Below, one piece after another: positions 2,586-63,686 of a DNA stretch of 64,000 bases. A program made the position numbers and the translations under genes. The first letter of the stretch is position 1; each line of letters begins with the position of its first letter. The notes below the pieces were generated by a model that was not told where the DNA came from, ran no database searches, and was given only the letters and a program-made list of their open reading frames with translations. The DNA lies in contig WTGL01000159.1 of the NCBI GenBank assembly GCA_011523565.1, forward strand, positions 2,101 through 66,100, in the 5' to 3' direction. Source of the stretch: Acidobacteriota bacterium. Lineage in GTDB: Bacteria > Acidobacteriota > Thermoanaerobaculia > Multivoradales > Multivoraceae.

Positions 2586-3349
2586 GGGCGGCGGAGAGTA
2601 GCAGCGCCGCGCCAGGGGCGCCGGCGCATCCTCCTTCCGAGCCAGGCGGTCGGGCCCGAGAGCGCGTAGCTCAAGGCGACGACCAGGAAGAACAGGCCGA
2701 TGTGGATCAGGGCGAGGATCGCGATGGCGGCGATCACCACGACGACCCGGAAGCCTCGCCGACGCCGGAAGTCGAGCTCCCTGAAGCTGAGGTAGCGGAA
2801 CGTGGAGACGGAGAGCAGGCCGACGACGATCAGGGCTCCGAGAACCGCGAGTTGCAGAACGAAGGAGTCGCCCCTGGTGTCGACGAAGAACAGAATCGAA
2901 CCGATCGCGCCCGCCGCCGCCGGCGCCGGCAGACCGACGAAGTACGCGGGATCGCTGGTCCGTCGGCTGACGTTGAAGCGGGCGAGCCGGGCCGCGCTGC
3001 AGAGCAGGTAGACGGCCGGCGCCGCGAAGCCGACGCGGCCAAGTTCGTGCAGGCCCCACAGGTAGCAGAGCAGGGCGGGCGCGAGGCCGAAGGAAACGAG
3101 GTCGGCGAGGGAATCGTACTCCCGGCCGAAGGGGCTCGCGGTACGGGTCAGCCGGGCGATCCGTCCGTCCAGCGTGTCGAGAACGGCGGCGGCGAAGATC
3201 ATCAGGATGGCGGTCCGGAACTGCCCCTCCAGCCCGGCCAGGAGGGCGTAGAAGCCGAGCAGCATGTTCGCCGTCGTGAACAGGCTGGGGATGAGGTAGG
3301 CCCCGGCACGCAGGGGTCTGGCTCTCCTTCGGGGACGCTTCCTGGTCAT
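2582..3349 (-). CDS. pssA: CDP-diacylglycerol--serine O-phosphatidyltransferase (CDP-alcohol phosphatidyltransferase family)
   Basis: DG..AR...G...D...D motif present (DTLDGRIARLTRTASPFGREYDSLAD). Multi-TM protein. 4-nt overlap with trxB. Confidence 0.85.
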   Translation of the reverse strand: MTRKRPRRRARPLRAGAYLIPSLFTTANMLLGFYALLAGLEGQFRTAILMIFAAAVLDTLDGRIARLTRTASPFGREYDSLADLVSFGLAPALLCYLWGLHELGRVGFAAPAVYLLCSAARLARFNVSRRTSDPAYFVGLPAPAAAGAIGSILFFVDTRGDSFVLQLAVLGALIVVGLLSVSTFRYLSFRELDFRRRRGFRVVVVIAAIAILALIHIGLFFLVVALSYALSGPTAWLGRRMRRRPWRGAATLRRP

Positions 3350-5268: not shown

Positions 5269-7947
5269 ATGACGCCGATGCTCCGGCACTACCTGACGGT
5301 GAAGGCGGAGCATCCCGACGCCATCCTTCTGTACCGGATGGGCGATTTCTTCGAGATGTTCTTCGAGGACGCCGTTACCGCGGCGCCGGTGCTCGATGTG
5401 GCGCTGACGGCCCGCCAGAAGGGCACGGCCAGCGAAGCGCCGATGTGCGGCGTGCCCCACCACGCGGTCGACGCCTACATCGGCAGGCTGCTCGACGCGG
5501 GCTTCAAGGTCGCGGTGTGCGACCAGGTCGAGGATCCGGCACAGGCCCGGGGCCTTGTACGCCGGGAGGTCACGCGGGTGGTGACGCCGGGGACGATCAG
5601 CGACCTCGAAATGCTGGACCAGGCCCGTCCGAACTACCTGGCCGGGATTCGTTTCGACGGGGCGTCCGGCGCAGGGGCGTTTCTCGATCTCTCGACCGGC
5701 GAGTTCTTCGTGCGGCGGTGGCCGAACGTGGAGGAGGCGGTCGAGGATCTGGAGAGGCTGGCGCCGCGGGAAGTTCTCACCTGCGCCGCCGATCTCGCGG
5801 CCGGCGCGGGTGACCCCGACGGACATCTGGCGGCCTGGATCGGCCGCGCCGGCACACCGCACACCGAAATCGAGGAGGACCAGGCTCCGAGACCGGCCGC
5901 GGCGGGGCGCGTCCTGCGGCGGCAGTTCGGAGTCCGGAACCTGCGGGGATTCGGTCTTGCCGAGGGGGAGGCGGCGGTCGCGGCGGCCGCCCTGGTGGTG
6001 GACTACGCGCGTGGCGCGGCGCGCTCCGACATCGACCACGTCGTTGCGCTGGAGGTCCAGCACGATGATCGCCGCGTGGTTCTGGACGAGACGACCCTTC
6101 GCAACCTGGAGGTCTTTCGCCATCTCCAGCACGAGGGGGGCAAGACCCTGATGGAGGTACTCGACCTGACGCTCACCGGACCGGGGACGCGCATGCTGCG
6201 ACGCTGGTTGAGCCGGCCCCTGCGTGACCTGGAGGTGCTCGGCGACCGCCACGACGGGGTGGCGGTGCTGGTCTCCGAGATCGGCCGGCGCGAGACGCTC
6301 CGGTCGCGGTTGATGAGCATTGCCGATCTGGAGCGGTTGACCTCGCGGGCGGTACTGGGACGGATCACGCCGCGGGAGGTCGGGGCGCTGCGGGACACCC
6401 TGCGCGAGGCGCCGTCCGTGCAGGGGGTTCTCGAGGGCCTGCGGGGGGAGCTTCTTGCCCGTCTCGCCGCGGTGGAGCCGCTGGGCGGGCTCCGGTCGAG
6501 GTTGGACTCCGTGCTGGCGGAAAGGCCCGGATCCCTGACCGAAGGCGGCGTGATCGCCGCTGGCGTCGACTCCGAACTCGACCGGCTCCGTTCGCTGGCG
6601 CGGGACGGCAAGGGGCACGTTGCCGCCCTTGAGGCGCGGGAGCGCGAAGCGACCGGTATCCCGACCCTGAAGGTCGGTTACAACCGGGTGTTCGGGTACT
6701 ACTTCGAGGTGCGGAAGACACAGCAGGACCGGGTTCCCGACCACTACGTGCGGCGGCAGACGTTGACCCATGCCGAGCGCTATGTCACCGACGAACTGAA
6801 GACGCTGGAACAGCAGATTCTCGGCGCCGAGAGCGGTCAGCTCGCGCTGGAACAGGAGTTGTTCGAGGGGCTGCGCCTGGAAATTGCGGACCAGGCCCCG
6901 CGGCTCCTGGAACTTGCCGCCGCGCTGGCGGAAATCGATTGCCTGGCCGCTCTGGCGGAGGTTGCCGCCCGGTACGACTACGTGCGACCGAGCATGATGC
7001 CGTCGGGAGGCCGTATCGAGATCCGCGATGGGCGGCACCCGGTGGTCGAGCGGTCGGCGGCGGCGGTGCGAGGCGCCTCGGGCTTCGTTCCCAACGACGT
7101 GGCGCTGGACCGCGAGACCGATCGGATCGTCCTGCTCACGGGTCCCAACATGGGCGGCAAGTCGACCTATCTGCGGCAGGTGGCGCTGATCGTGCTGATG
7201 GCTCATGCCGGCAGCTTCGTGCCCGCTCAGAGTGCCGAGATCGGCCTGGTGGACCGCATCTTCACCCGCGTCGGCGCCAGCGACGACCTGGCCCGGGGCG
7301 AGTCCACCTTCATGGTGGAGATGGTCGAGACCGCGAACATCCTCCGCCACGCGACGCGCGACAGCCTGGTCGTGCTCGACGAGGTCGGCCGCGGTACCTC
7401 GACGTACGACGGCCTGTCGCTGGCCTGGGCGATCGTCGAACGCCTGCACGAGCGGAACGGCTGTCTGGCTCTCTTCGCGACCCACTACCACGAACTGACC
7501 GGTCTGCCCGCGACGCTTTCCCGGGTGGCGAATCGACGCATGGCGGTCAAGGAGTGGCAGGACCAGATCCTGTTCCTGCACCGGGTGGCCGCGGGCCGCG
7601 CGGACAAGTCCTACGGCCTGCACGTCGCCCGGCTGGCCGGAGTGCCCAGGGAGGTGATCGAACGCGCGGCCGCGGTGCTCGAGAACATCGAGTCCCAGCA
7701 GTACAGCTTCTCAGGCAAGCCGAAGGTCGCCCTGGGGGCTGCCGGCGGACCGCCGGGCCCGGGAGCCGATCAGCTTTCCCTGTGGGCCGGCGAGGACGAG
7801 GCGGTGGTCGAAGCGCTTCGAGGCGTCGACGTGGACCAGTTGACGCCTGTAGCCGCGCTGAATCTGGTGCAGACCCTCCAGGACCGGCTCAGGTCGGGGC
7901 CGAAGCCGCCGGAGACCTCGGGGTCCGGCCGGGGCGAGAACTCCTAG
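5269..7947 (+). CDS. mutS: DNA mismatch repair protein MutS
   Basis: N-terminal MTPMLRHYLTVKAEHPDAILLYRMGDFFEMF and Walker A GPNMGGKST. Start set at the ATG at 5269 rather than the upstream ORF start. Confidence 0.95.
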   Translation: MTPMLRHYLTVKAEHPDAILLYRMGDFFEMFFEDAVTAAPVLDVALTARQKGTASEAPMCGVPHHAVDAYIGRLLDAGFKVAVCDQVEDPAQARGLVRREVTRVVTPGTISDLEMLDQARPNYLAGIRFDGASGAGAFLDLSTGEFFVRRWPNVEEAVEDLERLAPREVLTCAADLAAGAGDPDGHLAAWIGRAGTPHTEIEEDQAPRPAAAGRVLRRQFGVRNLRGFGLAEGEAAVAAAALVVDYARGAARSDIDHVVALEVQHDDRRVVLDETTLRNLEVFRHLQHEGGKTLMEVLDLTLTGPGTRMLRRWLSRPLRDLEVLGDRHDGVAVLVSEIGRRETLRSRLMSIADLERLTSRAVLGRITPREVGALRDTLREAPSVQGVLEGLRGELLARLAAVEPLGGLRSRLDSVLAERPGSLTEGGVIAAGVDSELDRLRSLARDGKGHVAALEAREREATGIPTLKVGYNRVFGYYFEVRKTQQDRVPDHYVRRQTLTHAERYVTDELKTLEQQILGAESGQLALEQELFEGLRLEIADQAPRLLELAAALAEIDCLAALAEVAARYDYVRPSMMPSGGRIEIRDGRHPVVERSAAAVRGASGFVPNDVALDRETDRIVLLTGPNMGGKSTYLRQVALIVLMAHAGSFVPAQSAEIGLVDRIFTRVGASDDLARGESTFMVEMVETANILRHATRDSLVVLDEVGRGTSTYDGLSLAWAIVERLHERNGCLALFATHYHELTGLPATLSRVANRRMAVKEWQDQILFLHRVAAGRADKSYGLHVARLAGVPREVIERAAAVLENIESQQYSFSGKPKVALGAAGGPPGPGADQLSLWAGEDEAVVEALRGVDVDQLTPVAALNLVQTLQDRLRSGPKPPETSGSGRGENS

Positions 7948-7951
7948 CGCC

Positions 7952-8045
7952 GCCAAACCTGTCGCAGGCTCCATGTTTGGCCCCAGCCCCCACCTACCTA
8001 GGAGCGTGCGCCGTGGACCTTGCTGCACGGCGTTCTACGGCGCAC
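7952..8045. terminator. bidirectional terminator hairpins between convergent mutS and ssb
   Basis: Inverted repeat GCCAAAC/GTTTGGC at 7952-7981 and a 9-bp inverted repeat GTGCGCCGT/ACGGCGCAC at 8006-8045. Confidence 0.4.
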
Positions 8046-8049
8046 CCTC

Positions 8050-8490
8050 CTAGAATGGAATGTCGTCGTCGGCGCCGCCGGGGTCGAAGCCCGCGTCGTG
8101 GGGAGCGGGCTGGGCCGGCGCTGCCTGACTGCGGCCGTGGCCGGGCTGGCCGCCGCTGTCGCCGCGGCCGCCGAGCATCTGGAAGTTGCGGCACACGATC
8201 TCGGTGCGGTAGCGCTTCTGGCCGGTCTGCTGATCGTCCCAGGAACGGGTCTGGAGCCGGCCCTCGACCGAGACCAGCTTGCCCCTGGTCAGGTACTGGC
8301 CGGCGACCTCGGCCTGGCGGCCCCAGCAGACGATGTAGTGCCACTCCGTCTCCTCCTGCCGGTTGCCGTCGCGGTCCGTCCAGCGCCGGTTCGTGGCGAC
8401 GCTGAAGTTGGCGACCGTCTGGCCGGATTGGGTCGTGCGGAGTTCCGGGTCGCGGCCGAGATGGCCGATCAGGATCACATGGTTCAGCAT
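8050..8490 (-). CDS. ssb: single-stranded DNA-binding protein
   Basis: OB fold ([14 protein letters not shown]) and acidic C-terminal tail DDDIPF. Start at the internal ATG, 146 aa. Confidence 0.9.
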
Positions 8491-13361: not shown

Positions 13362-13436
13362 TGGGGCGTCGCCAAGTGGTAAGGCACGAGACTTTGGATC
13401 TCGCATTCGGGGGTTCGATTCCTCCCGCCCCAACCA
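13362..13436 (+). tRNA. tRNA-Gln (anticodon TTG), CCA encoded
   Basis: Cloverleaf folded by hand: acceptor TGGGGCG/CGCCCCA, anticodon loop CTTTGGA. Confidence 0.85.
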
Positions 13437-14472: not shown

Positions 14473-15141
14473 GTGAGCGAACCGACCGTCACCGTCCGGC
14501 TGCGTGAGCAGACCGGAAAGAACGCGAACCGCCGCCTGCGCGCGGCGGGTGAGATCCCGGCCGTCGTGTACGGCGGCGAGGGGGATTCGGCGGCCATCCG
14601 GGTCGACGGCAAGAGCGTGCAGACGCTGATTCGGGAAGGCGGGGAGAACGCCGTCTTCCTGCTCCAACTGGAGGGCACGGATCGCACGCGACACACGATG
14701 ATCCGCGATCTGCAATGGAACCCCCTGACCGGGTCCCTGGTCCACATCGACTTCCTGCGCGTGAAGATGGACCAGGAAGTGCAGGTCTCGGTGCCGATCG
14801 CACTGGTCGGAAGCCCCGAGGGAGTCAGGAACGAAGGTGGCCTGCTGGAGTTCATCACCCGCGAGGTGGGAGTCGTCTGCCTGCCCGGCGACATTCCGGT
14901 TTCGATCGAACTCGATGTCGAGCCGCTGCACATCGGCCAGCACGTGGAAGCCGGCGAACTCGTTCTTCCCTCGGCGGTGCGGCTGGAGGAGGACGAGAGC
15001 CGCGTGATCGTGTCGGTGGCCGCGAAGAAGGTCATCGAAGAGGAGGAAGAAGTCCCCGAGGAGGACGAACTGCTGGAGGCCGTCGCCGAGGAGCCCGAGA
15101 TGGTGGGCGCGAAGACGGAATCGGAGGACGAAGACGACTAG
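14473..15141 (+). CDS. rplY: 50S ribosomal protein L25 / general stress protein Ctc
   Basis: L25/Ctc family with an acidic C-terminal extension. Confidence 0.9.
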   Translation: MSEPTVTVRLREQTGKNANRRLRAAGEIPAVVYGGEGDSAAIRVDGKSVQTLIREGGENAVFLLQLEGTDRTRHTMIRDLQWNPLTGSLVHIDFLRVKMDQEVQVSVPIALVGSPEGVRNEGGLLEFITREVGVVCLPGDIPVSIELDVEPLHIGQHVEAGELVLPSAVRLEEDESRVIVSVAAKKVIEEEEEVPEEDELLEAVAEEPEMVGAKTESEDEDD

Positions 15142-15172
15142 GGGCGCCGGTGGCGCCGACGAGCCGTCGCGA

Positions 15173-15745
15173 CTGGTCCTCGGTCTGGGCAATCCGGGCG
15201 AGCGGTACTCCGACACGCGCCACAACCTCGGCTTTCGCGTGGTCGAGGAACTGGCCAGGCGACTGGACGTCCGTCTAGGCCTGAAGGTCTGCGGAGCACT
15301 CTGGAGCGCGGCGAGCCCCGTCGATCTGGCGACCCCTCAGACCTACATGAACCGCAGCGGCTACAGTGCGCGCTGTCTCAGTGAACGAAATGGCTATGCT
15401 CCGGAGAACATCCTGGTCGTCTACGACGAAGTCCATCTGCCCCTGGGAAGGCTGCGTCTTCGCGGCAGGGGCAGTCCGGGCGGCCACCGGGGAATGGAAT
15501 CGATCATCGAGAACCTGCGCACCACTGCGGTGCCCCGGCTCAGGCTGGGCATCGCGGCGGAGGGAGCAGAACAAACAGATGGAAGTGCGGGCGGCAGGAA
15601 GGGAGAACTCACGGACTTCGTGCTCGCTCCCTTCGCCGGCGGGGAAGTCGAAACGGCGGCGCGCATGGTGTGCCGGGCGGCCGACTGCGTCCTGAGCTGG
15701 GTCGACCGCGGTGTCGACATCACCATGAACGAGTACAACGGATGA
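15173..15745 (+). CDS. pth: peptidyl-tRNA hydrolase (apparent CTG start or -1 frameshift)
   Basis: The [21 protein letters not shown] catalytic N-terminus is encoded in frame, but there is no ATG/GTG/TTG between the in-frame stop at 15005 and the GTG at 15239. CTG at 15173 sits at the expected start. Confidence 0.7.
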
Positions 15746-27126: not shown

Positions 27127-27545
27127 TTGCCGGAGGACCGGATGCGGTCGCTCCCGGCGGTGCTGCCGCCGGGGGAGGAAAGTCCGGACTCCAACGGACG
27201 GCATGCTTGCTAACGGCAAGGCGCGGCAACGCGACGGAAAGTGCAACAGAGAGCAGACCGCCGACCAGGTGGTTCCGGTGCCGACGAGGCCCCCGGAGCA
27301 CCGGGAAGGCAAGGGTGAAACGGTGCGGTAAGAGCGCACCGCTCGGCCGGCGACGGTCCGAGGCGATGGCAAACCCCATGTGGAGCAAGACCAAATAGGG
27401 AGTGCGGATCGGGCTGTCCGTCCCGATTCCGGGTTGTTCGCAACCGGGGACGCTCTCCGGGTAGGTCGCAAAGATGAATGGCCGCCTCCCATCGCCTGAA
27501 GGTGACGGGACGAACAGAATCCGGCTTACGAGGTCCTCCGGCACT
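27127..27545 (+). ncRNA. rnpB: RNase P RNA (bacterial type A, M1 RNA)
   Basis: Universal elements GGAGGAAAGTCCGGACTCCA, AGGGTGAAACGGTGCGGTAAGAGCGCACC and ACAGAATCCGGCTTA. P1 helix GCCGGAGGACC/GGTCCTCCGGC. Confidence 0.85.
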
Positions 27546-41988: not shown

Positions 41989-42184
41989 CAAGGAATCGGA
42001 CAAAGGCGCGAAAGTGGACGGCGAAGCATCATAGCGTCTTCGCTGTAGTTGTTCAGACGGAGTTGAGTCGCGCGAAGCACTCGTCTTTGACCGGCATGAA
42101 CCCGGAGTGCTACTGTCACACAATTCTCACACAATTCTCTCGCAATTGTCTCACGTCTCAGCGCGGGCCGAAAGGGGATTGGAC

Positions 42185-42919
42185 ATGGCTGAATCGACCA
42201 CTACGAACCCCGCTACCAAGTCGGGAGGGTTGGCCCTGATCATCGGAGTCGTCCTGCTGGTGCTCGCATCGCTCCTCCTTCCCGGGGGCGTACTGCTGGA
42301 CACGGTGGACCAAACCGACTTCGCGCTGGTCCTCGAGGCAATGGCCGAGAATGCCAGCCTTGCGCATCTTGCGTCCATGCTGTCGATCATCGGGATGTTC
42401 CTCTACATGTACGCCGGCCTCACCTGGCTCCGCCTACCCCAACAGACGGAACTCGGCGGTTCCATGCTGCGGCTGGGGGTGTTCGCAAGCCTGTTTGGAT
42501 GGAGCCTCTACGTCATTGCGATGGGTATGAGGCACTTCAGCGTCCACCTGATGCAGCGCGGCATGCAATCCGGCGCTGATCAGGCCATGTTCGAGTCCCT
42601 TGCCCTCAGCGTCTACACACCGATGGCCGGCATCGTCATCGCGCTGGTCGGCGTCTATCCTCTCGCGTCCATTCTGGTCGGCATCGGCCTTTCGTCCCGC
42701 TTCGGTTCACTGAACGTCTTCAAACTGGCCTCCTACGGACTTGTCCTCATCGGGATCCTGGCGGTCGTCAACTTCCTTGTCCTGCAGCACGTCCCAGGGG
42801 TCGATCCCGCGGTGCTACTCACGAACGACAACGCCATGCAGGCGTTGGGTTCGCTCTGCTTCGTCATCATCGGGCTGGGGATGTACCGGGGCAGGAGCGA
42901 ACTCTCCTCAGAGGGCTAG
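42185..42919 (+). CDS. hypothetical polytopic membrane protein
   Basis: About 6 predicted TM helices. Nothing recognisable. Confidence 0.5.
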   Translation: MAESTTTNPATKSGGLALIIGVVLLVLASLLLPGGVLLDTVDQTDFALVLEAMAENASLAHLASMLSIIGMFLYMYAGLTWLRLPQQTELGGSMLRLGVFASLFGWSLYVIAMGMRHFSVHLMQRGMQSGADQAMFESLALSVYTPMAGIVIALVGVYPLASILVGIGLSSRFGSLNVFKLASYGLVLIGILAVVNFLVLQHVPGVDPAVLLTNDNAMQALGSLCFVIIGLGMYRGRSELSSEG

Positions 42920-43086
42920 GAGCCTGCGTCGCGCAACGTAGCGACCGGGTGTCTGCGGCGCAGGGTCCTGGTGAGGTGGGGGCGACTGGGGCCAAACAGC
43001 GAGCCTGCGAGCGGTTTGGCGGCTCTAGCGCGCCCTCTTGACCGCCCGCGAGTGGCTGGGTTACCTTGGCCGTCCGGGCGGCGCGT

Positions 43087-43162
43087 GCGGGCATAACTCA
43101 GTTGGTAGAGTGCCAGCTTCCCAAGCTGGATGTCGCGGGTTCGAGTCCCGTTGCCCGCTCCA
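43087..43162 (+). tRNA. tRNA-Gly (anticodon CCC), CCA encoded
   Basis: Acceptor GCGGGCA/TGCCCGC, anticodon loop TTCCCAA. Confidence 0.85.
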
Positions 43163-46163: not shown

Positions 46164-46241
46164 GAGTGCATTCTAGGACTCAGCGCCCGGAATCTGCACG
46201 AGAGGGTCGATTTCGGGCGGTGAATCCTGGGGAGATGAGTC

Positions 46242-48551
46242 CTAGGGAGGAGTGCGGCCTCTGTCGCTGGGGGGCGGCGCCGACGGCGACGAGGATCTGG
46301 GCGGAGGGGAGTAGCTGGAAGGCCTCGAGGGCGGTGTGTAGCTGCGGGACGGCGGCGACGAGCGTGGCGACGAAGCGCGTGGCGTCGACCGCGTCCGGGT
46401 GGGGGGCGTGGAGCGTGTGCGCGTGGGTGTCGACCTCGGCGTGGAAGCCCTCGGTGGCGTGGAGCGCGTGCGAGTGGGCGTCGACTTCGGCGTGGACGCC
46501 CTCGGTGGCGTGGAGCGTGTGCGCGTGGGTGTCGACCTCGGCGTGGACGCCCTCGGTGGCGTGGAGCGCGTGCGAGTGGGCGTCGACTTCGGCGTGGAAG
46601 CCCTCGGTGGCGTGGAGCGCGTGCGAGTGGGCGTCGATCTCGGCGTGGAAGCCCTCGGCGGGGTCGAGCGGGTCCGGGTGGGTGTCGACTTGGGCGCGGA
46701 TGTCCGTGTCGGCACGGAACGGGTTCGGCTAGGTGTTGCCGTTCGCGGCGCGTTGACTCGTTCGGGCCGTCTCGATGGAGGATTCGCCGTGCGAGGGGCC
46801 GCCGGCACCGCGTCCCGGCCGCGGATCGCGTCGAGCACGCGGCGGGCGGGCGTCGGTCTCCGGGTGCGGTCGAGCACGTTTCCGCTCGCCCTCGGAGCCG
46901 CCACACGAGCCGGCGCCTTGTCGTCTGCGCCCTCGGAGTCTCGGGCGGTCGTCGTTGACGTTGGGGCCGCCGTCAGACCTCCGGAACTGACGCGTACGGC
47001 CTTCGGGGCTTCGGTTCGCCGAGCGTCGTCGAGGGACCTCCGCCGAAGCGTGACGCCCGTACCGGACTCCGTACCGGCGCCCGCTGTCGGCGAGTTGGAG
47101 CGCGTCCGGACGCCGCCGGCCGTTACGCCAACCAGACCGGATCGGCCGGCTACGGGGGGACCGCCCACGACTCGCACCGTCCCTTGCTGGTCGGGTGTTC
47201 GCGTCAGCTTGGCCTTGAGAGTCTCGTTCAGGTCCGTCCTTCGCGCGACGAAATCCGTGACATCGGGGAGTTCGCTTTCGGAAAGGCCGCGGCGCTTGCC
47301 GAGGAGGACCTGCTGTACCGCCTCGGGATTCCGCCAGTTTCGGTAGTCGATGCCGTTCGTGTCCGTCGTGATGATGCCGCGTGCGAGCTTCGGATGACGC
47401 TGGCGCAGGGAGCGGCCGTAGGTGTAACCGCGGCCGTAGCCCAGGTAGCCTGACGGGCAGAAGATCCAGGTGTTGAAGGGATCCCAGAAGCCCCCTGCCC
47501 ATCCGTAGAGTCCCCAACGGAGGCCGAAGCCCCGGCCGAGGTAGTAGCGGTGGTAGTAGCCGCGGGGGATCCACCCCACATACGACGGCCCCCAGTACCA
47601 GTACACGTGGCTCGGAGCGTAGATGGAGCTTGGGAACCAGAGCCAACCGTAGCCGGGATACAGGTTCCAGCTGCCGTAGTGATAGGTGAGGGGACCCCAG
47701 GGGTCGCGCGCGACCCAGTACAGTCCGGCGGGGGTATGCGTCCAGCGGCCTCGACTGTAGGGCTGCCAATCGTCCTCAACCGCGGGCTTCCAGGCCCGGC
47801 CATCCTCAACCTCCACCCATTGGCCGTGGTCGGTCAGGCTGGACCCGTAGCCGTCGACATCGACGGCGGCGTATGCCGCAAGCCGGGTGCGGTGAGCCCC
47901 TACCCATTCATCCAGGGCCAGAGCGGCGGCGCCGGCGCCGCTCTGAAGTTCGATCCACGGGTCGTCCAGACCTTGCACCAGAAGGGCTTCGCCATCGCGG
48001 ACGATCACCGAACCGCGCTGGGTGACGACCTCCGCGAAGCCGTCCAGCACAGCGATTTCCGCCCAGCGGTCGCCGTCGCTTTCGACCTGGTAGCGGCCGC
48101 CCTGTTTGGCGTAGACCCGGGCGTTCGTCGTGTCGATTGCCGGCAGCTCCCAGTCCAGCAGGTTGTTCGGGACCTCGAGGCTCAACCGGCCCCGGTGCAG
48201 GACGTAGAGGGAGTCCATGTCGTCCGCGTCCGGTGAGCCGGCGATCTGGGCGAGAGTGACCTCGCTGTCGTGGTCGAGAGCGAGAATCGAGCGGTCCGAC
48301 ATCAGCACGGCCAGCCGGCCGTACGGATTGGTCCAGATTCGGTCTCCGCGCAGGACCGGAAGGTGAATCTCCAAGTCGCTCTGCGCTCCGGAACGTGCCG
48401 CGAACAGGGTCGCGTCTCCGTCCAACGCACCGACGAGGCTGTAGACGCCCTCGAGTTGTCCTTGTTCCTGGGGTGCCGTCTGAGCGTGGGTGGCGGTCGC
48501 CACCCCTGCCGCGAGGACGATCAGTAGGGCTTGCGGGAGGGTACGTCTCAT
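46242..48551 (-). CDS. secreted FecR-domain protein with aromatic-rich central region and R/S/T/P-rich tandem-repeat C-terminus
   Basis: Signal peptide MRRTLPQALLIVLAAGVATATHAQ. FecR-like segment. G/Y/W-rich stretch. About 6 copies of a 17-aa repeat TPTRTRSTPPRASTP[RK]S. Confidence 0.65.
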   Translation of the reverse strand: MRRTLPQALLIVLAAGVATATHAQTAPQEQGQLEGVYSLVGALDGDATLFAARSGAQSDLEIHLPVLRGDRIWTNPYGRLAVLMSDRSILALDHDSEVTLAQIAGSPDADDMDSLYVLHRGRLSLEVPNNLLDWELPAIDTTNARVYAKQGGRYQVESDGDRWAEIAVLDGFAEVVTQRGSVIVRDGEALLVQGLDDPWIELQSGAGAAALALDEWVGAHRTRLAAYAAVDVDGYGSSLTDHGQWVEVEDGRAWKPAVEDDWQPYSRGRWTHTPAGLYWVARDPWGPLTYHYGSWNLYPGYGWLWFPSSIYAPSHVYWYWGPSYVGWIPRGYYHRYYLGRGFGLRWGLYGWAGGFWDPFNTWIFCPSGYLGYGRGYTYGRSLRQRHPKLARGIITTDTNGIDYRNWRNPEAVQQVLLGKRRGLSESELPDVTDFVARRTDLNETLKAKLTRTPDQQGTVRVVGGPPVAGRSGLVGVTAGGVRTRSNSPTAGAGTESGTGVTLRRRSLDDARRTEAPKAVRVSSGGLTAAPTSTTTARDSEGADDKAPARVAAPRASGNVLDRTRRPTPARRVLDAIRGRDAVPAAPRTANPPSRRPERVNAPRTATPSRTRSVPTRTSAPKSTPTRTRSTPPRASTPRSTPTRTRSTPPRASTPKSTPTRTRSTPPRASTPRSTPTRTRSTPPRASTPKSTPTRTRSTPPRASTPRSTPTRTRSTPPTRTRSTPRASSPRSSPPSRSYTPPSRPSSYSPPPRSSSPSAPPPSDRGRTPP
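46405..46700. repeat. 51-nt tandem repeat (~5.7 copies) inside the FecR-domain gene
   Basis: Unit GGCGTGGAGCGYGTGCGMGTGGGYGTCGACYTCGGCGTGGAMGCCCTCGGT is visible directly in the sequence. It also produces spurious plus-strand ORFs. Confidence 0.8.
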
Positions 48552-48760
48552 CTCTCTACCTCCAACGGACTCGGAGTCTGCACGCTACCACCGGGAGTCG
48601 AGCAAACCGCGTGCCAGATCCGCGGAGACGTCGGAGCGTGTCGACCTCGGAGGAACCGTAGCGGGAACGGCACAGTGGTGTCTACTCGCGGGGACGGTGG
48701 CGTCATCAGGCGTCTGCCTTCCCGTATGATCGGCGCGGCTCCACGCCGCGTAGGGAGTGC

Positions 48761-51943: not shown

Positions 51944-52041
51944 GCGGGAATAGCTCAGTGGTAGAGCACAACCTTGCCAAGGTTGGGGTCGCGGGTTTGC
52001 AAAACCCTTATTCGCCGGTTCGAATCCGGCCGTCGCCTCCA
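51944..52041 (+). tRNA. chimeric tRNA: 5' portion of tRNA-Gly(GCC) fused to 3' portion of tRNA-Cys(GCA)
   Basis: Gly acceptor, D arm, anticodon arm (GCC) and T-stem 5' strand run directly into the Cys anticodon arm (TTGCAAA), T arm, acceptor 3' strand and U73-CCA. Junction at a shared CGGGTT. The two acceptor strands cannot pair. Confidence 0.65.
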
Positions 52042-52055
52042 GACTTTCCTTACAC

Positions 52056-52139
52056 GCCGGAGTGGCGGAACGGCAGACGCAGGGGACTTAAAATCCCCGG
52101 CCCCTAGTGGGCGTGTGGGTTCGAATCCCACCTCCGGCA
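52056..52139 (+). tRNA. tRNA-Leu (anticodon TAA), type II
   Basis: Acceptor GCCGGAG/CTCCGGC, anticodon loop CTTAAAA, long variable arm. CCA not contiguous. Confidence 0.85.
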
Positions 52140-55192: not shown

Positions 55193-56350
55193 CTATCTTC
55201 CTGAAACCGGTGCGGCCGTTCCCTGGCCGCGGTAGTCGCCGAACAGCATTTCAACTCCGAAGCGCAGGATGGGAACGGAATCCCTGGGTTCGCCCGGCGT
55301 TTCCCGGCGCCAGGCCATGCCGGGACCGATCTCGAGAAAGAACCACTCGCGGAGGATCTGCTGACGGTAGATCAGGCGGACGAAGTAGTTTTCGATCTGG
55401 ACCGGCATGTCCGTCTCCCCGTTGGCGCCGATCTGGTGGGCAATGGCGCGACGCCGGCCCAGGCGATGGTAGTAGCTCAGCTCGGTGAACCAGTCCGCGC
55501 CCTGTGTGATGTCGGAGATCTTCCCGGCGCCGCGCCAGCGCATCATCGAGCCGCCCGCGAAGGCGTGCTCGTAGTCGATTCGGGTGGACAGGCCCCAGCC
55601 GTCTTCGCGTTCCCAGAACAGGCTGTGACGAAAGCGCACGAGGTCCGTGTCCGACAGGAAGGTCCGGTGCTTGTAGCGGGCGCGCGCGAAGGGCTCGACC
55701 GGAAAGTCGAAGTTCATGCCGACGTCGAAATCGAGGTCGCCGTTGCCGCCGGAGATCGGCCGGTAGCCGAGTCCGAGCAGCCACTCGTCGTCGGCGGCGT
55801 CGAACATATGCGGCAGGGATGTGGCGCCCCGGCGCTGGGCGTCCTCCAGTACGTCTTCGCGGTCGTCGCGGCCGATGAAGGCGTTCAGGCGCCGCTCCAT
55901 GTTCGGAAAGTGAAGACGGGCGCGAAAGCGAAGGTCATCCTCGAAGCCGTACTGCTCATCCCAGATCACGCCCACGAGGGCGCGGCCGTACGTCGCCTCG
56001 AGTTCCTCGTCGAGCCGGTAGTCGCCGAACAGGTGATCGAACCACAGCGCCGTCTCGCAGGCGGTCCGGTGCAGGCGCAGGTTCAGCCAGTCGAGCCAGG
56101 AACGTCCCTCGAGGTACTCGGAGGCGCACGGGTCGACCTGCTCGTCCCCGGCTTCTTCCGCAGTTTCTTCCGCGGCCGACCGGGCCTCGGGCTCCGCCTC
56201 CACCGCGGGCCTGGGAGCCTGGCCCGCGTCGGGTTCGGGTTTCGTTTCCTGGCCCGAGACGGGGGCAGCGGCGAGAACGCCGCCACAGTAGAGCGCGCCA
56301 GCCACTGCCAACCAACCGCGGAGGGGGTGCCGCGTTTCTCTAGTCAACAT
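55193..56350 (-). CDS. hypothetical secreted protein
   Basis: Signal peptide MLTRETRHPLRGWLAVAGALYCGGVLAAAPVSG followed by an acidic linker. Possibly a beta-barrel outer-membrane enzyme, not identified. Confidence 0.45.
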   Translation of the reverse strand: MLTRETRHPLRGWLAVAGALYCGGVLAAAPVSGQETKPEPDAGQAPRPAVEAEPEARSAAEETAEEAGDEQVDPCASEYLEGRSWLDWLNLRLHRTACETALWFDHLFGDYRLDEELEATYGRALVGVIWDEQYGFEDDLRFRARLHFPNMERRLNAFIGRDDREDVLEDAQRRGATSLPHMFDAADDEWLLGLGYRPISGGNGDLDFDVGMNFDFPVEPFARARYKHRTFLSDTDLVRFRHSLFWEREDGWGLSTRIDYEHAFAGGSMMRWRGAGKISDITQGADWFTELSYYHRLGRRRAIAHQIGANGETDMPVQIENYFVRLIYRQQILREWFFLEIGPGMAWRRETPGEPRDSVPILRFGVEMLFGDYRGQGTAAPVSGR

Positions 56351-56494
56351 GGTTCCAGGGGCAGCGCGACCGGCACTCCGCCCGGCTCGGCGGCGCCTGT
56401 CCATCTTCGCACGCCGGCTCGGAAATCCGCAGGAGGTTGCGCCTCGGACACACAGCGTTGCGTTCCTCAGCTCAACCTCCTAGGCTGAGGTACC

Positions 56495-57856
56495 GTGCGC
56501 GGCCCGGTCGAGGAAACCCACAGCCTGCCGCACAGCGAGGAGTCGGAGCGCGCTGTGCTGGCCGCGATCCTGCTCGATGCCGACCGACACCTGGCGGCCA
56601 CCGCGACCCGCCTGAAGGCCGACGACTACTACTTCGAAAGGCATCGTCTTCTGTATGAGGCGATGCTCGCGCTCCAGGAGTCGGACAGCCCGATCGACCT
56701 GCGGACCGTTCAGGCGCGGCTGGAACAGCGGGACCAGTTCGAAGCCGCCGGCGGCGTCGCGTATCTGGCCACGCTGGAGGTGGACCTGCCGGACCTCGGC
56801 CGTGTCGACTCCTACGTCGAGATCATCAAGGAACGGGCCCTGCGCAGGCGACTGATCGACGCCTGTACAACGATCTACCGGACGGCGCTCGACGGCGGGC
56901 TCGAGGCGAAGGACGCCCTTGGCCGCGCGGAGCAGGCGGTGATGGAACTGAGCGAGGAGGCGGTAACGCGCACCTTCGCGCCATTCGACCAGGTGGTCCG
57001 CGAGACGGTGGAGAGGCTCGAACAGCGCTCGTCGAACGACTTCCCCGGGTTGCGTACGGGATTCGTCGATTTCGACCGGATGACACACGGTCTCCAGCCG
57101 GGCAACCTGATCATCATCGCCGGCCGGCCGGGGATGGGAAAGACGAGCCTGGCCCTCAACATCGCCACCCACGTTGCGCATGAGGAAGGGAAGGCGGCCG
57201 GCTTCTTCTCGCTCGAGATGAACGAGCAGGAGATCGCCATGCGGGTGCTGTGCTCAACGACCGACATTCCCTTCCACCGGTTGCGCGGCGGTCGGCTCGG
57301 GGCGCGCGACTGGAGCCGTCTGCACGAGGCCGTGGAGGCCGGCCGGGACTCGAGTCTGTTCATCGACGATTCCGCCAATCCGTCGCTCCTCGAGGTCGCC
57401 TCCAAGGCGCGCAGGCTGAAGGCCCAGCAAGGCCTCGCACTCGTGGTCGTGGACTACCTCCAGTTGATGAACGCCGGGGGCAGGTACGAGAACCGCAACC
57501 TGGAGATCGGAGCGATCACGCGCGGCCTGAAACAACTGGCCAAGGAACTCGATGTGCCGGTCGTGGCGCTCTCCCAGCTCTCGCGGCTTCCAGAGCGCCG
57601 CGGCAAGGACCACCGTCCCCAGCTCGCGGATCTCCGGGAGTCGGGCAACATCGAGCAGGACGCCGACATCGTCGTCTTCGTCTACCGGGAAGAGATGTAC
57701 GAGCGGGACGACCCCGACGTGCGGGGCATGGCGCAGTTGATCATCGCCAAGCACCGGAACGGGGAAACGGGGAGCGTGGATCTGGTCTTCATCGGCGACA
57801 CGACGACGTTTCGCAACTACGACAGCCAGCACACGCCGCCCGAGGGACCACCCTGA
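56495..57856 (+). CDS. dnaB: replicative DNA helicase
   Basis: DnaB N-terminal domain plus RecA-like domain (GRPGMGKTS). GTG start. Confidence 0.95.
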   Translation: MRGPVEETHSLPHSEESERAVLAAILLDADRHLAATATRLKADDYYFERHRLLYEAMLALQESDSPIDLRTVQARLEQRDQFEAAGGVAYLATLEVDLPDLGRVDSYVEIIKERALRRRLIDACTTIYRTALDGGLEAKDALGRAEQAVMELSEEAVTRTFAPFDQVVRETVERLEQRSSNDFPGLRTGFVDFDRMTHGLQPGNLIIIAGRPGMGKTSLALNIATHVAHEEGKAAGFFSLEMNEQEIAMRVLCSTTDIPFHRLRGGRLGARDWSRLHEAVEAGRDSSLFIDDSANPSLLEVASKARRLKAQQGLALVVVDYLQLMNAGGRYENRNLEIGAITRGLKQLAKELDVPVVALSQLSRLPERRGKDHRPQLADLRESGNIEQDADIVVFVYREEMYERDDPDVRGMAQLIIAKHRNGETGSVDLVFIGDTTTFRNYDSQHTPPEGPP

Positions 57857-59001
57857 CCCCGGACGCTCGCGCCCGGGTCGAAATCGATCTCGGCACTCTG
57901 GCCGGCAATCTGCGACTGGTTCGGCGGGCGGTCGGCGGGACCGGTGTGTTCGGTGTGGTCAAGGCGGACGCCTACGGTCACGGAGCCGTGTCCGTGAGCC
58001 TCGAATTGGAGCGGTTGGGCATCGACGGGTTCGCCGTGGCTCGCGTGAATGAGGTCGGGGAACTGCGGCAGTCAGGGGTACGCGGCCGGCTGCTGCTCCT
58101 GGGTGGACCAGCGTCGATCGAGGAGCTCGCGTGCGCCGTCGAGTGGAACGCAACGCCCGTGCTCACGCGCCGGCAGCAGATCGCCGACTGGTCGGCCTGG
58201 CGACGGCGGGCCTCCGGCAGCCGCACCCCTCTCGGCGTCGTGGTCGAGCTGGACACCGGCATGAGGCGCTACGGCGTACCGCTCGACGAGTGGCCGCCCT
58301 TGCTCCGGGAACTCCGGTCGGCGCCGGAACTGCGACTGACCGGCCTGATGTCCCATCTGGCGGAATCCGAGCTGCCGGAAAGCGGCTTCACGGCGCTCCA
58401 GGAGGAGCGGTTTGCCGAGGCAGTCGGAGCCTTGGGACCGGAAGAGCGCGGGGCCGTGTCCCTTCATCTCGCGAACTCGTCCGGCGCGCTCAGACGGGCC
58501 TCCGCGCGCTGGAGCGCGGTTCGTGTGGGCGGGGCACTCTACGGCCTCGATCTGGCCGCTGCCGCCGACCCCTCGCCGGGATCCGGGTTGCGCCCGGTGA
58601 TGCGTGTCATAGCGCCCATCCTCGATCTTCGGCAGGTTCCGATCGGGACCGGTGTCGGCTACCGGCGAACCTGGAAGGCAGCGCGTGACGCGACGATCGC
58701 CCTGCTGCCTGTCGGCTACGGCGACGGATTCAGCACCGCCTACGGCATCGGCGACGTGCTCGTGGGGGGCATCCGCTGCCCGATCGCGGGTCAGGTCAGC
58801 ATGGACTCGCTGACCGTCGACGTCACCGGCGTTTCCGGCGTCAAGTTGGGAGACGAGTGCGTTCTGCTCGGCTCGCAGGGGGACGAACGGATCGGGGTCA
58901 CCGAACTCTCCGCCCGCGCCGGCATCGCCGCCTACGAAGTCTGGTGCGGCTTCAGGAGTCGGCTGCCGCGGCGGATCCTGGACCCTGGCGTCAGCTCCTA
59001 G
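57853..59001 (+). CDS. alr: alanine racemase (apparent CTG start)
   Basis: N-terminal VEIDLGTLAGNLRLV and PLP-lysine motif VVKADAYGHG. No ATG/GTG/TTG for more than 45 codons upstream. CTG at 57853 overlaps the dnaB stop. Confidence 0.75.
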   Translation: MTPDARARVEIDLGTLAGNLRLVRRAVGGTGVFGVVKADAYGHGAVSVSLELERLGIDGFAVARVNEVGELRQSGVRGRLLLLGGPASIEELACAVEWNATPVLTRRQQIADWSAWRRRASGSRTPLGVVVELDTGMRRYGVPLDEWPPLLRELRSAPELRLTGLMSHLAESELPESGFTALQEERFAEAVGALGPEERGAVSLHLANSSGALRRASARWSAVRVGGALYGLDLAAAADPSPGSGLRPVMRVIAPILDLRQVPIGTGVGYRRTWKAARDATIALLPVGYGDGFSTAYGIGDVLVGGIRCPIAGQVSMDSLTVDVTGVSGVKLGDECVLLGSQGDERIGVTELSARAGIAAYEVWCGFRSRLPRRILDPGVSS

Positions 59002-63600: not shown

Positions 63601-63686
63601 TGGTGCCGGAGGTGGGAGTCGAACCCACACGCCCCGAGGGGCGGGGGATTTTGAGTCCCCTGCGTCTGCCATTCCGCCACTCCGGC
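63601..63686 (-). tRNA. tRNA-Leu (anticodon CAA), type II, CCA encoded
   Basis: Reverse complement folds as GCCGGAG...CTCAAAA...CTCCGGCACCA with a long variable arm. Confidence 0.85.

Follow-up and report, generated by a model that had tools for sequence, protein, structure and literature searches.

Near-cognate start codons occur naturally in bacteria: infC and pcnB of Escherichia coli begin with AUU, and translation table 11 allows CUG, AUU, AUC, and AUA. Here, we describe a 64,000-nucleotide stretch of an Acidobacteriota genome (GenBank assembly GCA_011523565.1, contig WTGL01000159.1, positions 2,101 to 66,100 of the forward strand), referred to throughout as the window, in which pth, the gene for peptidyl-tRNA hydrolase (Pth), resembles those genes. 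It is a conserved housekeeping gene with no AUG, GUG, or UUG to start from, and a near-cognate codon preceded by a Shine-Dalgarno (SD) sequence is conserved in its orthologues. Unlike in the known cases, the codon that we favor, an ACG at position 15134, mismatches AUG at its second position, falls outside table 11, and lies within the upstream gene, which encodes ribosomal protein L25 (rplY/ctc); unlike infC, nothing at pth points to autoregulation.

Other described systems share part of this arrangement. Termination-reinitiation coupling, as in the coat-lysis genes of phages fr and MS2 and in trpE-trpD (PMC12548453, PMC6728339), likewise joins co-directional genes whose stop and start codons are a few nucleotides apart and whose start may precede the stop. 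The described cases use canonical starts, whereas pth would use ACG, and its coupling to L25 is putative. The +1 frameshift of prfB is similar in its +1 frame relation and in an SD-like element shortly before the stop codon, but the pth junction lacks a slippery P-site codon and its pre-stop codon is not conserved, and we reject this mechanism below. In plant organelles, C-to-U RNA editing turns ACG into an AUG start (ndhD, psbL). The likeness to pth, i.e., a genomic ACG where a start is needed, is one of resemblance only, as nothing here suggests editing, and we know of no start-creating C-to-U RNA editing system in bacteria. Literature searches turned up no description of a natural bacterial ACG start or of a start-less pth.

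The pth frame carries a TGA at 15005-15007, is open from 15008 onward, and meets its next ATG, GTG, or TTG at 15239-15241, 77 codons on. The original prediction, made from the letters of the window, had claimed that no canonical start lies between these two points, and the coordinates confirm this as written. The frame encodes a complete Pth domain. The Pfam model Pept_tRNA_hydro (PF01195) matches from model position 1 to 183 of 183 (E 5e-47; 160.5 bits, where the curated cut-off is 27), and the in-frame CTG at 15173-15175 encodes the Leu that aligns with model position 1. A homologue search gave 6255 matches, of which the nearest is 96% identical. Aligned to the solved Pth of Thermus thermophilus (5zx8), the sequence from CTG 15173 pairs with residues 7 onward, and the catalytic Asn (GNPG), His (TRHN), and Asp ((V/Y)DE), which we take to be N10, H20, and D93 in E. 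coli numbering, are all present. Public gene callers, as well as the list of open reading frames (ORFs) for the window, begin pth at GTG 15239. This start would drop 22 codons of the domain and, because the GNPG Asn (15191-15193) and the TRHN His (15221-15223) are encoded upstream of it, yields a truncated 168-residue product without the catalytic His.

By its length alone, the start-free stretch is unremarkable: at ~0.036 canonical start triplets per codon, estimated from the base composition of the window (68% GC), 77 codons free of them have a chance probability of ~0.06. Its significance comes from the selected, conserved coding sequence inside it and from its recurrence in independent assemblies and related species. 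Over codons 0-21 (CTG 15173 being codon 0), the window was compared with start-less lineages outside its own subclade, giving synonymous divergence (dS) of 0.55-0.80 and nonsynonymous divergence (dN) of 0.04-0.09. The resulting dN/dS of ~0.1 over the 22 start-less codons is similar to that of the remainder of the gene, and no internal stop or frameshift was found in pth in any lineage compared. Purifying selection of this strength implies that the 22 codons are translated. Judged from its sequence, pth is an intact and apparently functional Pth1 gene without a canonical start. Since no ATG, GTG, or TTG is available here and in several related species, a near-cognate start beside the end of L25 is required.

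The sequence recurs well beyond one contig. The exact 168-residue product is present on 17 contigs, and a 190-nt junction is base-identical to the window in five independent assemblies of the same organism, made from different samples with different assemblers; they comprise MEGAHIT k141 contigs, Logan short-read contigs, and a contig with a long-read-style name, from which its origin is inferred. One of these five loci belongs to a different strain, with 8 mismatches elsewhere in the locus. Related loci, designated here by L numbers, keep the same structure: the frames are arranged as in the window in L002 and its four independent assemblies (L057-L060), and in the closest relative, L001, at 96% protein identity, GGADEPPRLVLG is read in the pth frame as well. 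In a Pfam screen of ~45 ORFs of the window, there was no sign of frequent frameshifts in its genes.

The comparison set consisted of 23 close genome loci and further contigs, to which a metagenome scan added just two more close loci. The nearest database relatives are metagenome-assembled genomes (MAGs) labelled Acidobacteria, Thermoanaerobaculia, or 'Candidatus Multivorans', many of them from sponges and corals to judge by isolate and sample names. The organism of the window is an uncultured, sponge-associated symbiont known from MAGs alone. At least seven related species-level lineages share the start-less configuration of pth, and the junctions sort into three types. (i) Type A: in the outgroups (L015-L023) and the L003-L011 clade, an ATG at codon -9 is embedded in the L25 tail (GAG GAT GGr ... 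TAG); it starts 11 nt before the L25 stop, and pth and L25 overlap by ~14 nt. (ii) Type B: in the window, L002/L057-60, L009, L062, L012, L013, L036/37, and L061, and also in L016 and L017, the L25 codon is GAC, GGC, or GAA, which replaces the ATG with ACG, GCG, or AAG and leaves no canonical start; L016 and L017 differ in having a TTG at -2 and a GTG at +1, respectively. In the window, the change from ATG to ACG at 15128-15130 is silent for L25 (GAT to GAC, both Asp). (iii) Type C: in L001, L021, and L014, the L25 TAG is the exact site of a ~107-nt repeat element with CTAG on both sides; the element brings in a GTG or ATG in frame.

A neighbor-joining (NJ) tree built on 6.2 kb, whose support values were not inspected, places type A as basal and type B in at least three subclades; we claim no exact number of independent ATG losses from it. 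In relatives with a canonical start, pth begins 6-11 codons before the position of CTG 15173, mostly at codon -9, and in the three insertion-bearing relatives it is called from -19 to -25. The original prediction had placed the start of Pth at CTG 15173. This codon is in frame and encodes the first conserved residue, but the canonical starts of relatives lie upstream of it. An alignment of orthologues, proposed at the same time as a check on this codon, finds CTG 15173 kept in all start-less genomes, with CTC, CTG, or TTG in the others. L007 carries a GTG at -3 and an ATG that precedes the ancestral site by two codons (L25 GAG to GAT). The canonical starts of L007, L016, and L017 (locus ~2960-3010) appear to have been gained secondarily, after loss of the ancestral ATG. 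In-frame canonical codons far upstream, within L25 (-33 to -70 in some relatives), were considered as starts and set aside; their positions are unconserved, and there is none in the window or L002.

As the start of pth, we give ACG 15134-15136 about an even chance. The position is invariant in all start-less genomes, i.e., every type B member listed above including L016 and L017, and is kept although the L25 residues that it overlaps vary (DD, DA, NA); in ATG-bearing genomes, the same site varies and is ACG, AAA, AGG, GCG, or AAG. Either GGAGG or GGGGGG stands 4-5 nt before the ACG in nine of nine start-less genomes, with a predicted SD pairing of -9.4 to -10.0 kcal/mol, and the canonical genes of the window (L25, S6, S18, L9, and the H+-PPase) pair more weakly, at -5.9 to -8.5 kcal/mol. 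For CTG 15173, the pairing is 0 to -2.2 kcal/mol in six of the nine. Conservation of the codon holds for both candidates and does not discriminate between them; a ribosome-binding site at functional spacing does, being present for ACG 15134 in all nine genomes (-9.5 kcal/mol at 5 nt in the window) and lacking for CTG in six.

The spacer between the L25 stop and CTG also bears on the choice. Its length in relatives is 4, 10, 13, 25, or 31 nt, always 1 mod 3; it differs from that of L001 by a 6-nt in-frame indel, and all variation of the codon at -1 (CGA/CGC/CGG/CGT) keeps its Arg. On this pattern, the interval from ACG to CTG appears to behave as coding sequence. Measured with reporters in E. 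coli, initiation from CUG reaches 1-2% of that from AUG, and the other non-canonical codons, the class to which ACG belongs, give 0.1-1%; an ACG reporter yielded a Met N-terminus confirmed by mass spectrometry (10.1101/063800).

Several points weigh against ACG 15134. The codon is in the weakest detectable class of E. coli start codons. To our knowledge, it is also not among the start codons of table 11. The SD energies were predicted against a canonical anti-SD, which was assumed; the window contains no 16S rRNA gene. Conservation of the ACG and its SD is only moderately informative, because both lie inside the acidic or Gly-rich tail of L25, which itself makes GGAGG-like strings, and because the start-less genomes are related. 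The third-position and in-frame changes in the spacer are few: two in-frame indels would arise by chance with a probability of ~0.1, and over 10-31 nt the substitutions counted by codon position do not suffice for a significance test. CTG 15173 shows the same invariance among start-less genomes and makes the better near-cognate in E. coli, and a canonical codon adjoins it in two start-less lineages (L016, TTG at -2; L017, GTG at +1). The N-terminus of Pth at ACG 15134 is a prediction, and we infer which codon starts pth, that this codon is read as Met, and that its use depends on L25 translation.

Initiation at CTG 15173 itself, either de novo or by ribosomes scanning 31 nt past the L25 stop after termination, would give a 190-residue protein beginning M-VLGLGNPG. 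We consider this, the main rival of ACG 15134, possible but rather unlikely. Beyond its invariance and the standing of CUG among the best E. coli near-cognates (1-2% of AUG; 10.1101/063800), it has in its favor that the clade evidently starts alr at a CTG (see below), that the Pfam model begins on its Leu, and that the TTG at -2 in L016, the GTG at +1 in L017, and a TTG at codon 0 in L014 and L023 suggest that N-termini near CTG may be tolerated. The absence of an SD in six of nine start-less genomes argues against it, as does the distance from the L25 stop, which varies (10, 13, and 31 nt) while the frame of the ACG is always kept. Further, only synonymous changes affect the Arg codon before the CTG, canonical-start relatives all begin at least 6 codons before it, and the matched solved Pth chains extend at least 1-2 residues ahead of the position aligned to codon -1/0. 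Against it, too, CTG is simply the commonest Leu codon at 68% GC, and ATG-bearing relatives have CTG or CTC there as well. The original prediction had offered genuine CUG initiation as one option for pth; its non-canonical part is supported, but the SD, the invariance of the site, and the frame of the spacer favor ACG 15134 over CTG 15173.

Use of another near-cognate codon by the L25 stop (ACG 15128, AAG 15131, or AGG 15140), or of several jointly, is improbable. All three lie a few nucleotides from the termination site, and ACG 15128 occupies precisely the site of the ancestral ATG. That position is GCG in L012, L013, L036, L037, L017, and L061 and AAG in L062, and in the window GGAGG abuts ACG 15128 with 0 nt of spacing, on which grounds, unconserved and too close to its SD, we rule it out as the general start; AAG and AGG are near-cognates of the weakest class.

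That ribosomes shift by +1 close to the 3' end of L25 and so make an L25-Pth fusion is very unlikely, the superficial resemblance to prfB notwithstanding. The codon before the L25 stop varies among start-less genomes (GAC, GCC), and no slippery site is conserved. Neither GAC (shifting to ACU) nor GCC (shifting to CCU) re-pairs in the +1 frame. With a pre-stop codon that is neither conserved nor able to re-pair, such a fusion has little to recommend it, and relatives bearing the ATG make a separate Pth, while in those with the insertion L25 and pth are >100 nt apart.

Less credible still is a truncated or decaying pth, either started at GTG 15239, as the public gene calls of 168 residues have it, or a pseudogene replaced by another hydrolase. 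The product would lack the GNPG Asn and the catalytic His, codons 0-21 show a dN/dS of ~0.1 where relaxed selection would give ~1, the lineages carry no internal stops or frameshifts, and GTG 15239 has no SD (-1.7 kcal/mol) and is not conserved as a start in L009, L012, or L013. Least probable of all is the indel that the original prediction had raised, in which pth would truly begin at GTG 15150 and a single base would have been lost from 15150-15173: an SD-like AGGGG of modest strength (-5.6 kcal/mol) precedes this GTG by 4-5 nt, but we reject the indel because the junction is identical across independent assemblies and the frame is common to L001, L002, and L057-L060, and GTG 15150 has no counterpart in L009, L012, and L013.

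Initiation at ACG 15134 could be reached by the following route. Ancestrally, and still in most relatives, the ATG of pth would have been embedded in the last codons of L25, with the overlap of ~14 nt seen in type A. A silent GAT to GAC change in L25 would then have turned this ATG into ACG in the lineage of the window. Translation would pass to the near-cognate ACG 15134, decoded as fMet, 5-6 nt past GGAGG(A) and 5 nt before the L25 stop. Ribosomes ending the heavily translated L25, or recruited by the SD, may initiate there at low efficiency and make a 203-residue Pth whose N-terminus carries a short disordered tail. After termination, ribosomes are able to restart at codons close to a stop, whether before or beyond it (PMC12548453). 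Those terminating at TAG 15139 would sit on or beside the SD-ACG unit, and the weak codon may supply the low level of Pth that a cell needs. The proximity of L25 stop and pth start, with the ACG 5 nt and the ancestral ATG 11 nt before the TAG, is conserved except where the repeat element has inserted. With this layout, pth may be coupled to L25 by termination-reinitiation.

The upstream gene starts at a GTG with AAGGAG 6 nt before it and ends in an acidic tail (...ESEDEDD*); the order of genes is prs, rplY/ctc, pth, H+-PPase, and rpsF-rpsR-rplI. The pth frame is the L25 frame +1, and the spacer between the L25 stop and CTG 15173 contains no near-cognate codon. The coordinates of these elements are collected in the table.

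Table. Features of the L25-pth junction and of the dnaB-alr junction, in positions of the window.
Feature	Positions	Strand	Basis or remark
rplY/ctc (ribosomal protein L25/TL5)	14473..15141	+	Pfam Ribosomal_L25p and Ribosomal_TL5_C; syntenic in all relatives
GGAGGA, SD-like, within the L25 tail	15123..15128	+	-9.5 kcal/mol with canonical anti-SD; 5 nt before ACG 15134
ACG, homologue of the ancestral ATG	15128..15130	+	Junction alignment; L25 codon GAT in relatives, GAC here
ACG, favored pth start	15134..15136	+	5 nt before the L25 stop; invariant in start-less genomes
Proposed pth coding sequence	15134..15745	+	203 residues from ACG 15134 (190 from CTG 15173); stop TGA 15743-15745
TAG, L25 stop, proposed termination-reinitiation point	15139..15141	+	Junction alignment
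Spacer from L25 stop to CTG, 31 nt	15142..15172	+	Open in the pth frame; RGAGGADEPSR if started at the ACG
GTG, out of frame, alternative start of the original prediction; not part of pth	15150..15152	+	Different frame, 23 nt 5' of CTG 15173; missing in L009/L012/L013
CTG, Pth domain residue 1, rival start	15173..15175	+	Pfam model position 1
Conserved catalytic N-terminus of pth	15173..15238	+	Upstream of any canonical start; structure alignment, dN/dS
GTG, first canonical in-frame start of pth	15239..15241	+	Start of public callers; no SD
dnaB-alr junction	57842..57856	+	SD GAGGGA 57842-7; in-frame CTG 57853-5 overlaps dnaB TGA 57854-6 (CTGA)

In the Pfam screen of the window ORFs, which was used in place of a survey based on third-position GC content (GC3) that proved too noisy at 68% GC, a domain begins upstream of every canonical start in pth and alr only. 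In alr, position 1 of the Ala_racemase_N model falls at 57883, and the first canonical start is a GTG at 57946, five codons before the Lys that binds pyridoxal phosphate (PLP). CTG 57853 lies 5-6 nt after GAGGGA. Both the CTGA and the SD are conserved in L070, L072, L073/74, L075, and L076 (six genomes; 66-100% protein identity), the length from CTG to VEIDL varies in frame, and one NCBI record, GCA_026707375.1 (L076), annotates the alr coding sequence from that CTG. Among close alr gene calls, 50 of 62 (~3/4) are truncated N-terminally, e.g., MFGVVKADAYGHG. In this clade, pth and alr are alike in several respects: within the same genome, an SD stands 5-6 nt before a near-cognate codon beside the upstream stop, and most public calls are truncated in the same way. 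They differ in that alr uses CTG in a classic -4 (NTGA) overlap conserved to 66% identity, whereas pth would use ACG in a -8 overlap found in part of the clade only.

The original prediction had extended recurrence to alr, a lolB-like gene, and a cohesin lipoprotein. The first holds, with a conserved CTG over the dnaB stop; the second is ambiguous, as it has an in-frame ATG; and the third could not be located. The lolB-like gene could begin at ATG 11570, in the tail of the TPR gene (GAT GAC), with a 43-residue signal peptide, or at CTG 11633, 7 nt past the TPR TGA, with a typical 22-residue lipoprotein signal peptide. In more distant relatives, the protein begins with MRRSFPLLLL..., which puts 17 residues ahead of the Cys, and calls in several closer ones begin inside the hydrophobic core. 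Judging from ORF start indices, the overlaps uvrB/uvrC, recG/GT4, and scpA/scpB appear to use canonical starts. A gene for a secreted protein (55193-56479, minus strand; no Pfam match) is called from different starts in L063 (336 residues) and L064 (385 residues), two assemblies of one organism; it was considered as a further non-canonical case and rejected, having ordinary ATGs at 56404 and 56350.

The repeat element of the type C junctions is ~107-110 nt long, is flanked by CTAG direct repeats, and consists of a 5' hairpin and a conserved 3' half (GGTGGGGGCTGGGGCCAAAC...GGTTTGGCGGC). In relatives, it lies at L001 2865-2976, L021 2881-2991, and L014 2874-2980, where it gives pth a new start at the L25 TAG. 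The window holds two copies: one (7944-8053, minus strand) exactly between the TAG stops of mutS and ssb, and another (42916-43028, plus strand) at the TAG stop of ORF 42035-42919, ending ~60 nt before a tRNA gene at 43087. The element looks like a miniature inverted-repeat transposable element (MITE) that would target CTAG and hence TAG stop codons. Rfam gave no match at the L25-pth junction or for the repeat element.

Elsewhere in the window, ORF 46180-46728 (minus strand; 182 codons) has no ATG, GTG, or TTG, a GC3 of 0.87-1.0, and His-rich 16-residue tandem repeats (HATEGFHAEVDAHSHAL). It overlaps ORF 46245-48584 (minus strand), which encodes 780 residues with a DUF6600/FecR domain, as an alternative frame of its S/T/P/R-rich C-terminal repeats, and could reflect a within-gene frameshift or repeats that are read in the wrong frame. 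A class A RNase P RNA (228 bits) is found at 27131-27544 (plus strand), and we count five tRNA genes in the window, with matches at 13362-13433, 43087-43159, 51951-52139, and 63604-63686.

Near-cognate starts and translational coupling are already known, and the CTG of alr is already in an NCBI record. What is new is pth as an essential gene that is start-less at the level of a clade, a documented route by which its start was lost, the apparent compensatory starts, and the likely use of ACG. For annotation, many pth calls in the clade (132-189 residues) and most alr calls (332-373 residues) are truncated N-terminally. Truncated pth calls with at most 168 residues are without the catalytic His. 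The conserved N-terminal segment is missing from every truncated alr call, and two of these also lack the PLP-binding Lys. Such calls can mislead functional inference as well as measures of MAG quality.

The locus is also a clean case, found in nature, of an essential gene that has long persisted with no canonical start, the dS between lineages reaching ~0.8. In evolutionary terms, it illustrates how a downstream gene may lose its start through overlap with its neighbor: the upstream GAT to GAC change, silent and favored at 68% GC, destroys the ATG. New canonical starts have apparently been acquired in relatives, as an ATG in L007, a TTG at -2 in L016, a GTG at +1 in L017, and an insertion with a GTG or ATG in L001, L021, and L014. 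More broadly, and tentatively, since the reading as a whole falls somewhat short of an even chance, ACG may be the native start of the essential pth gene in several sponge- and coral-associated species of Thermoanaerobaculia, which ribosomes would use by reinitiating after L25 with help from the SD. Taken with the CTG of alr, it would mark a lineage that routinely tolerates, or selects, near-cognate starts to set very low expression beside highly translated neighbors, its canonical starts having been lost by GC3-driven synonymous change. If the ACG start were confirmed, the natural set of bacterial start codons would be extended.

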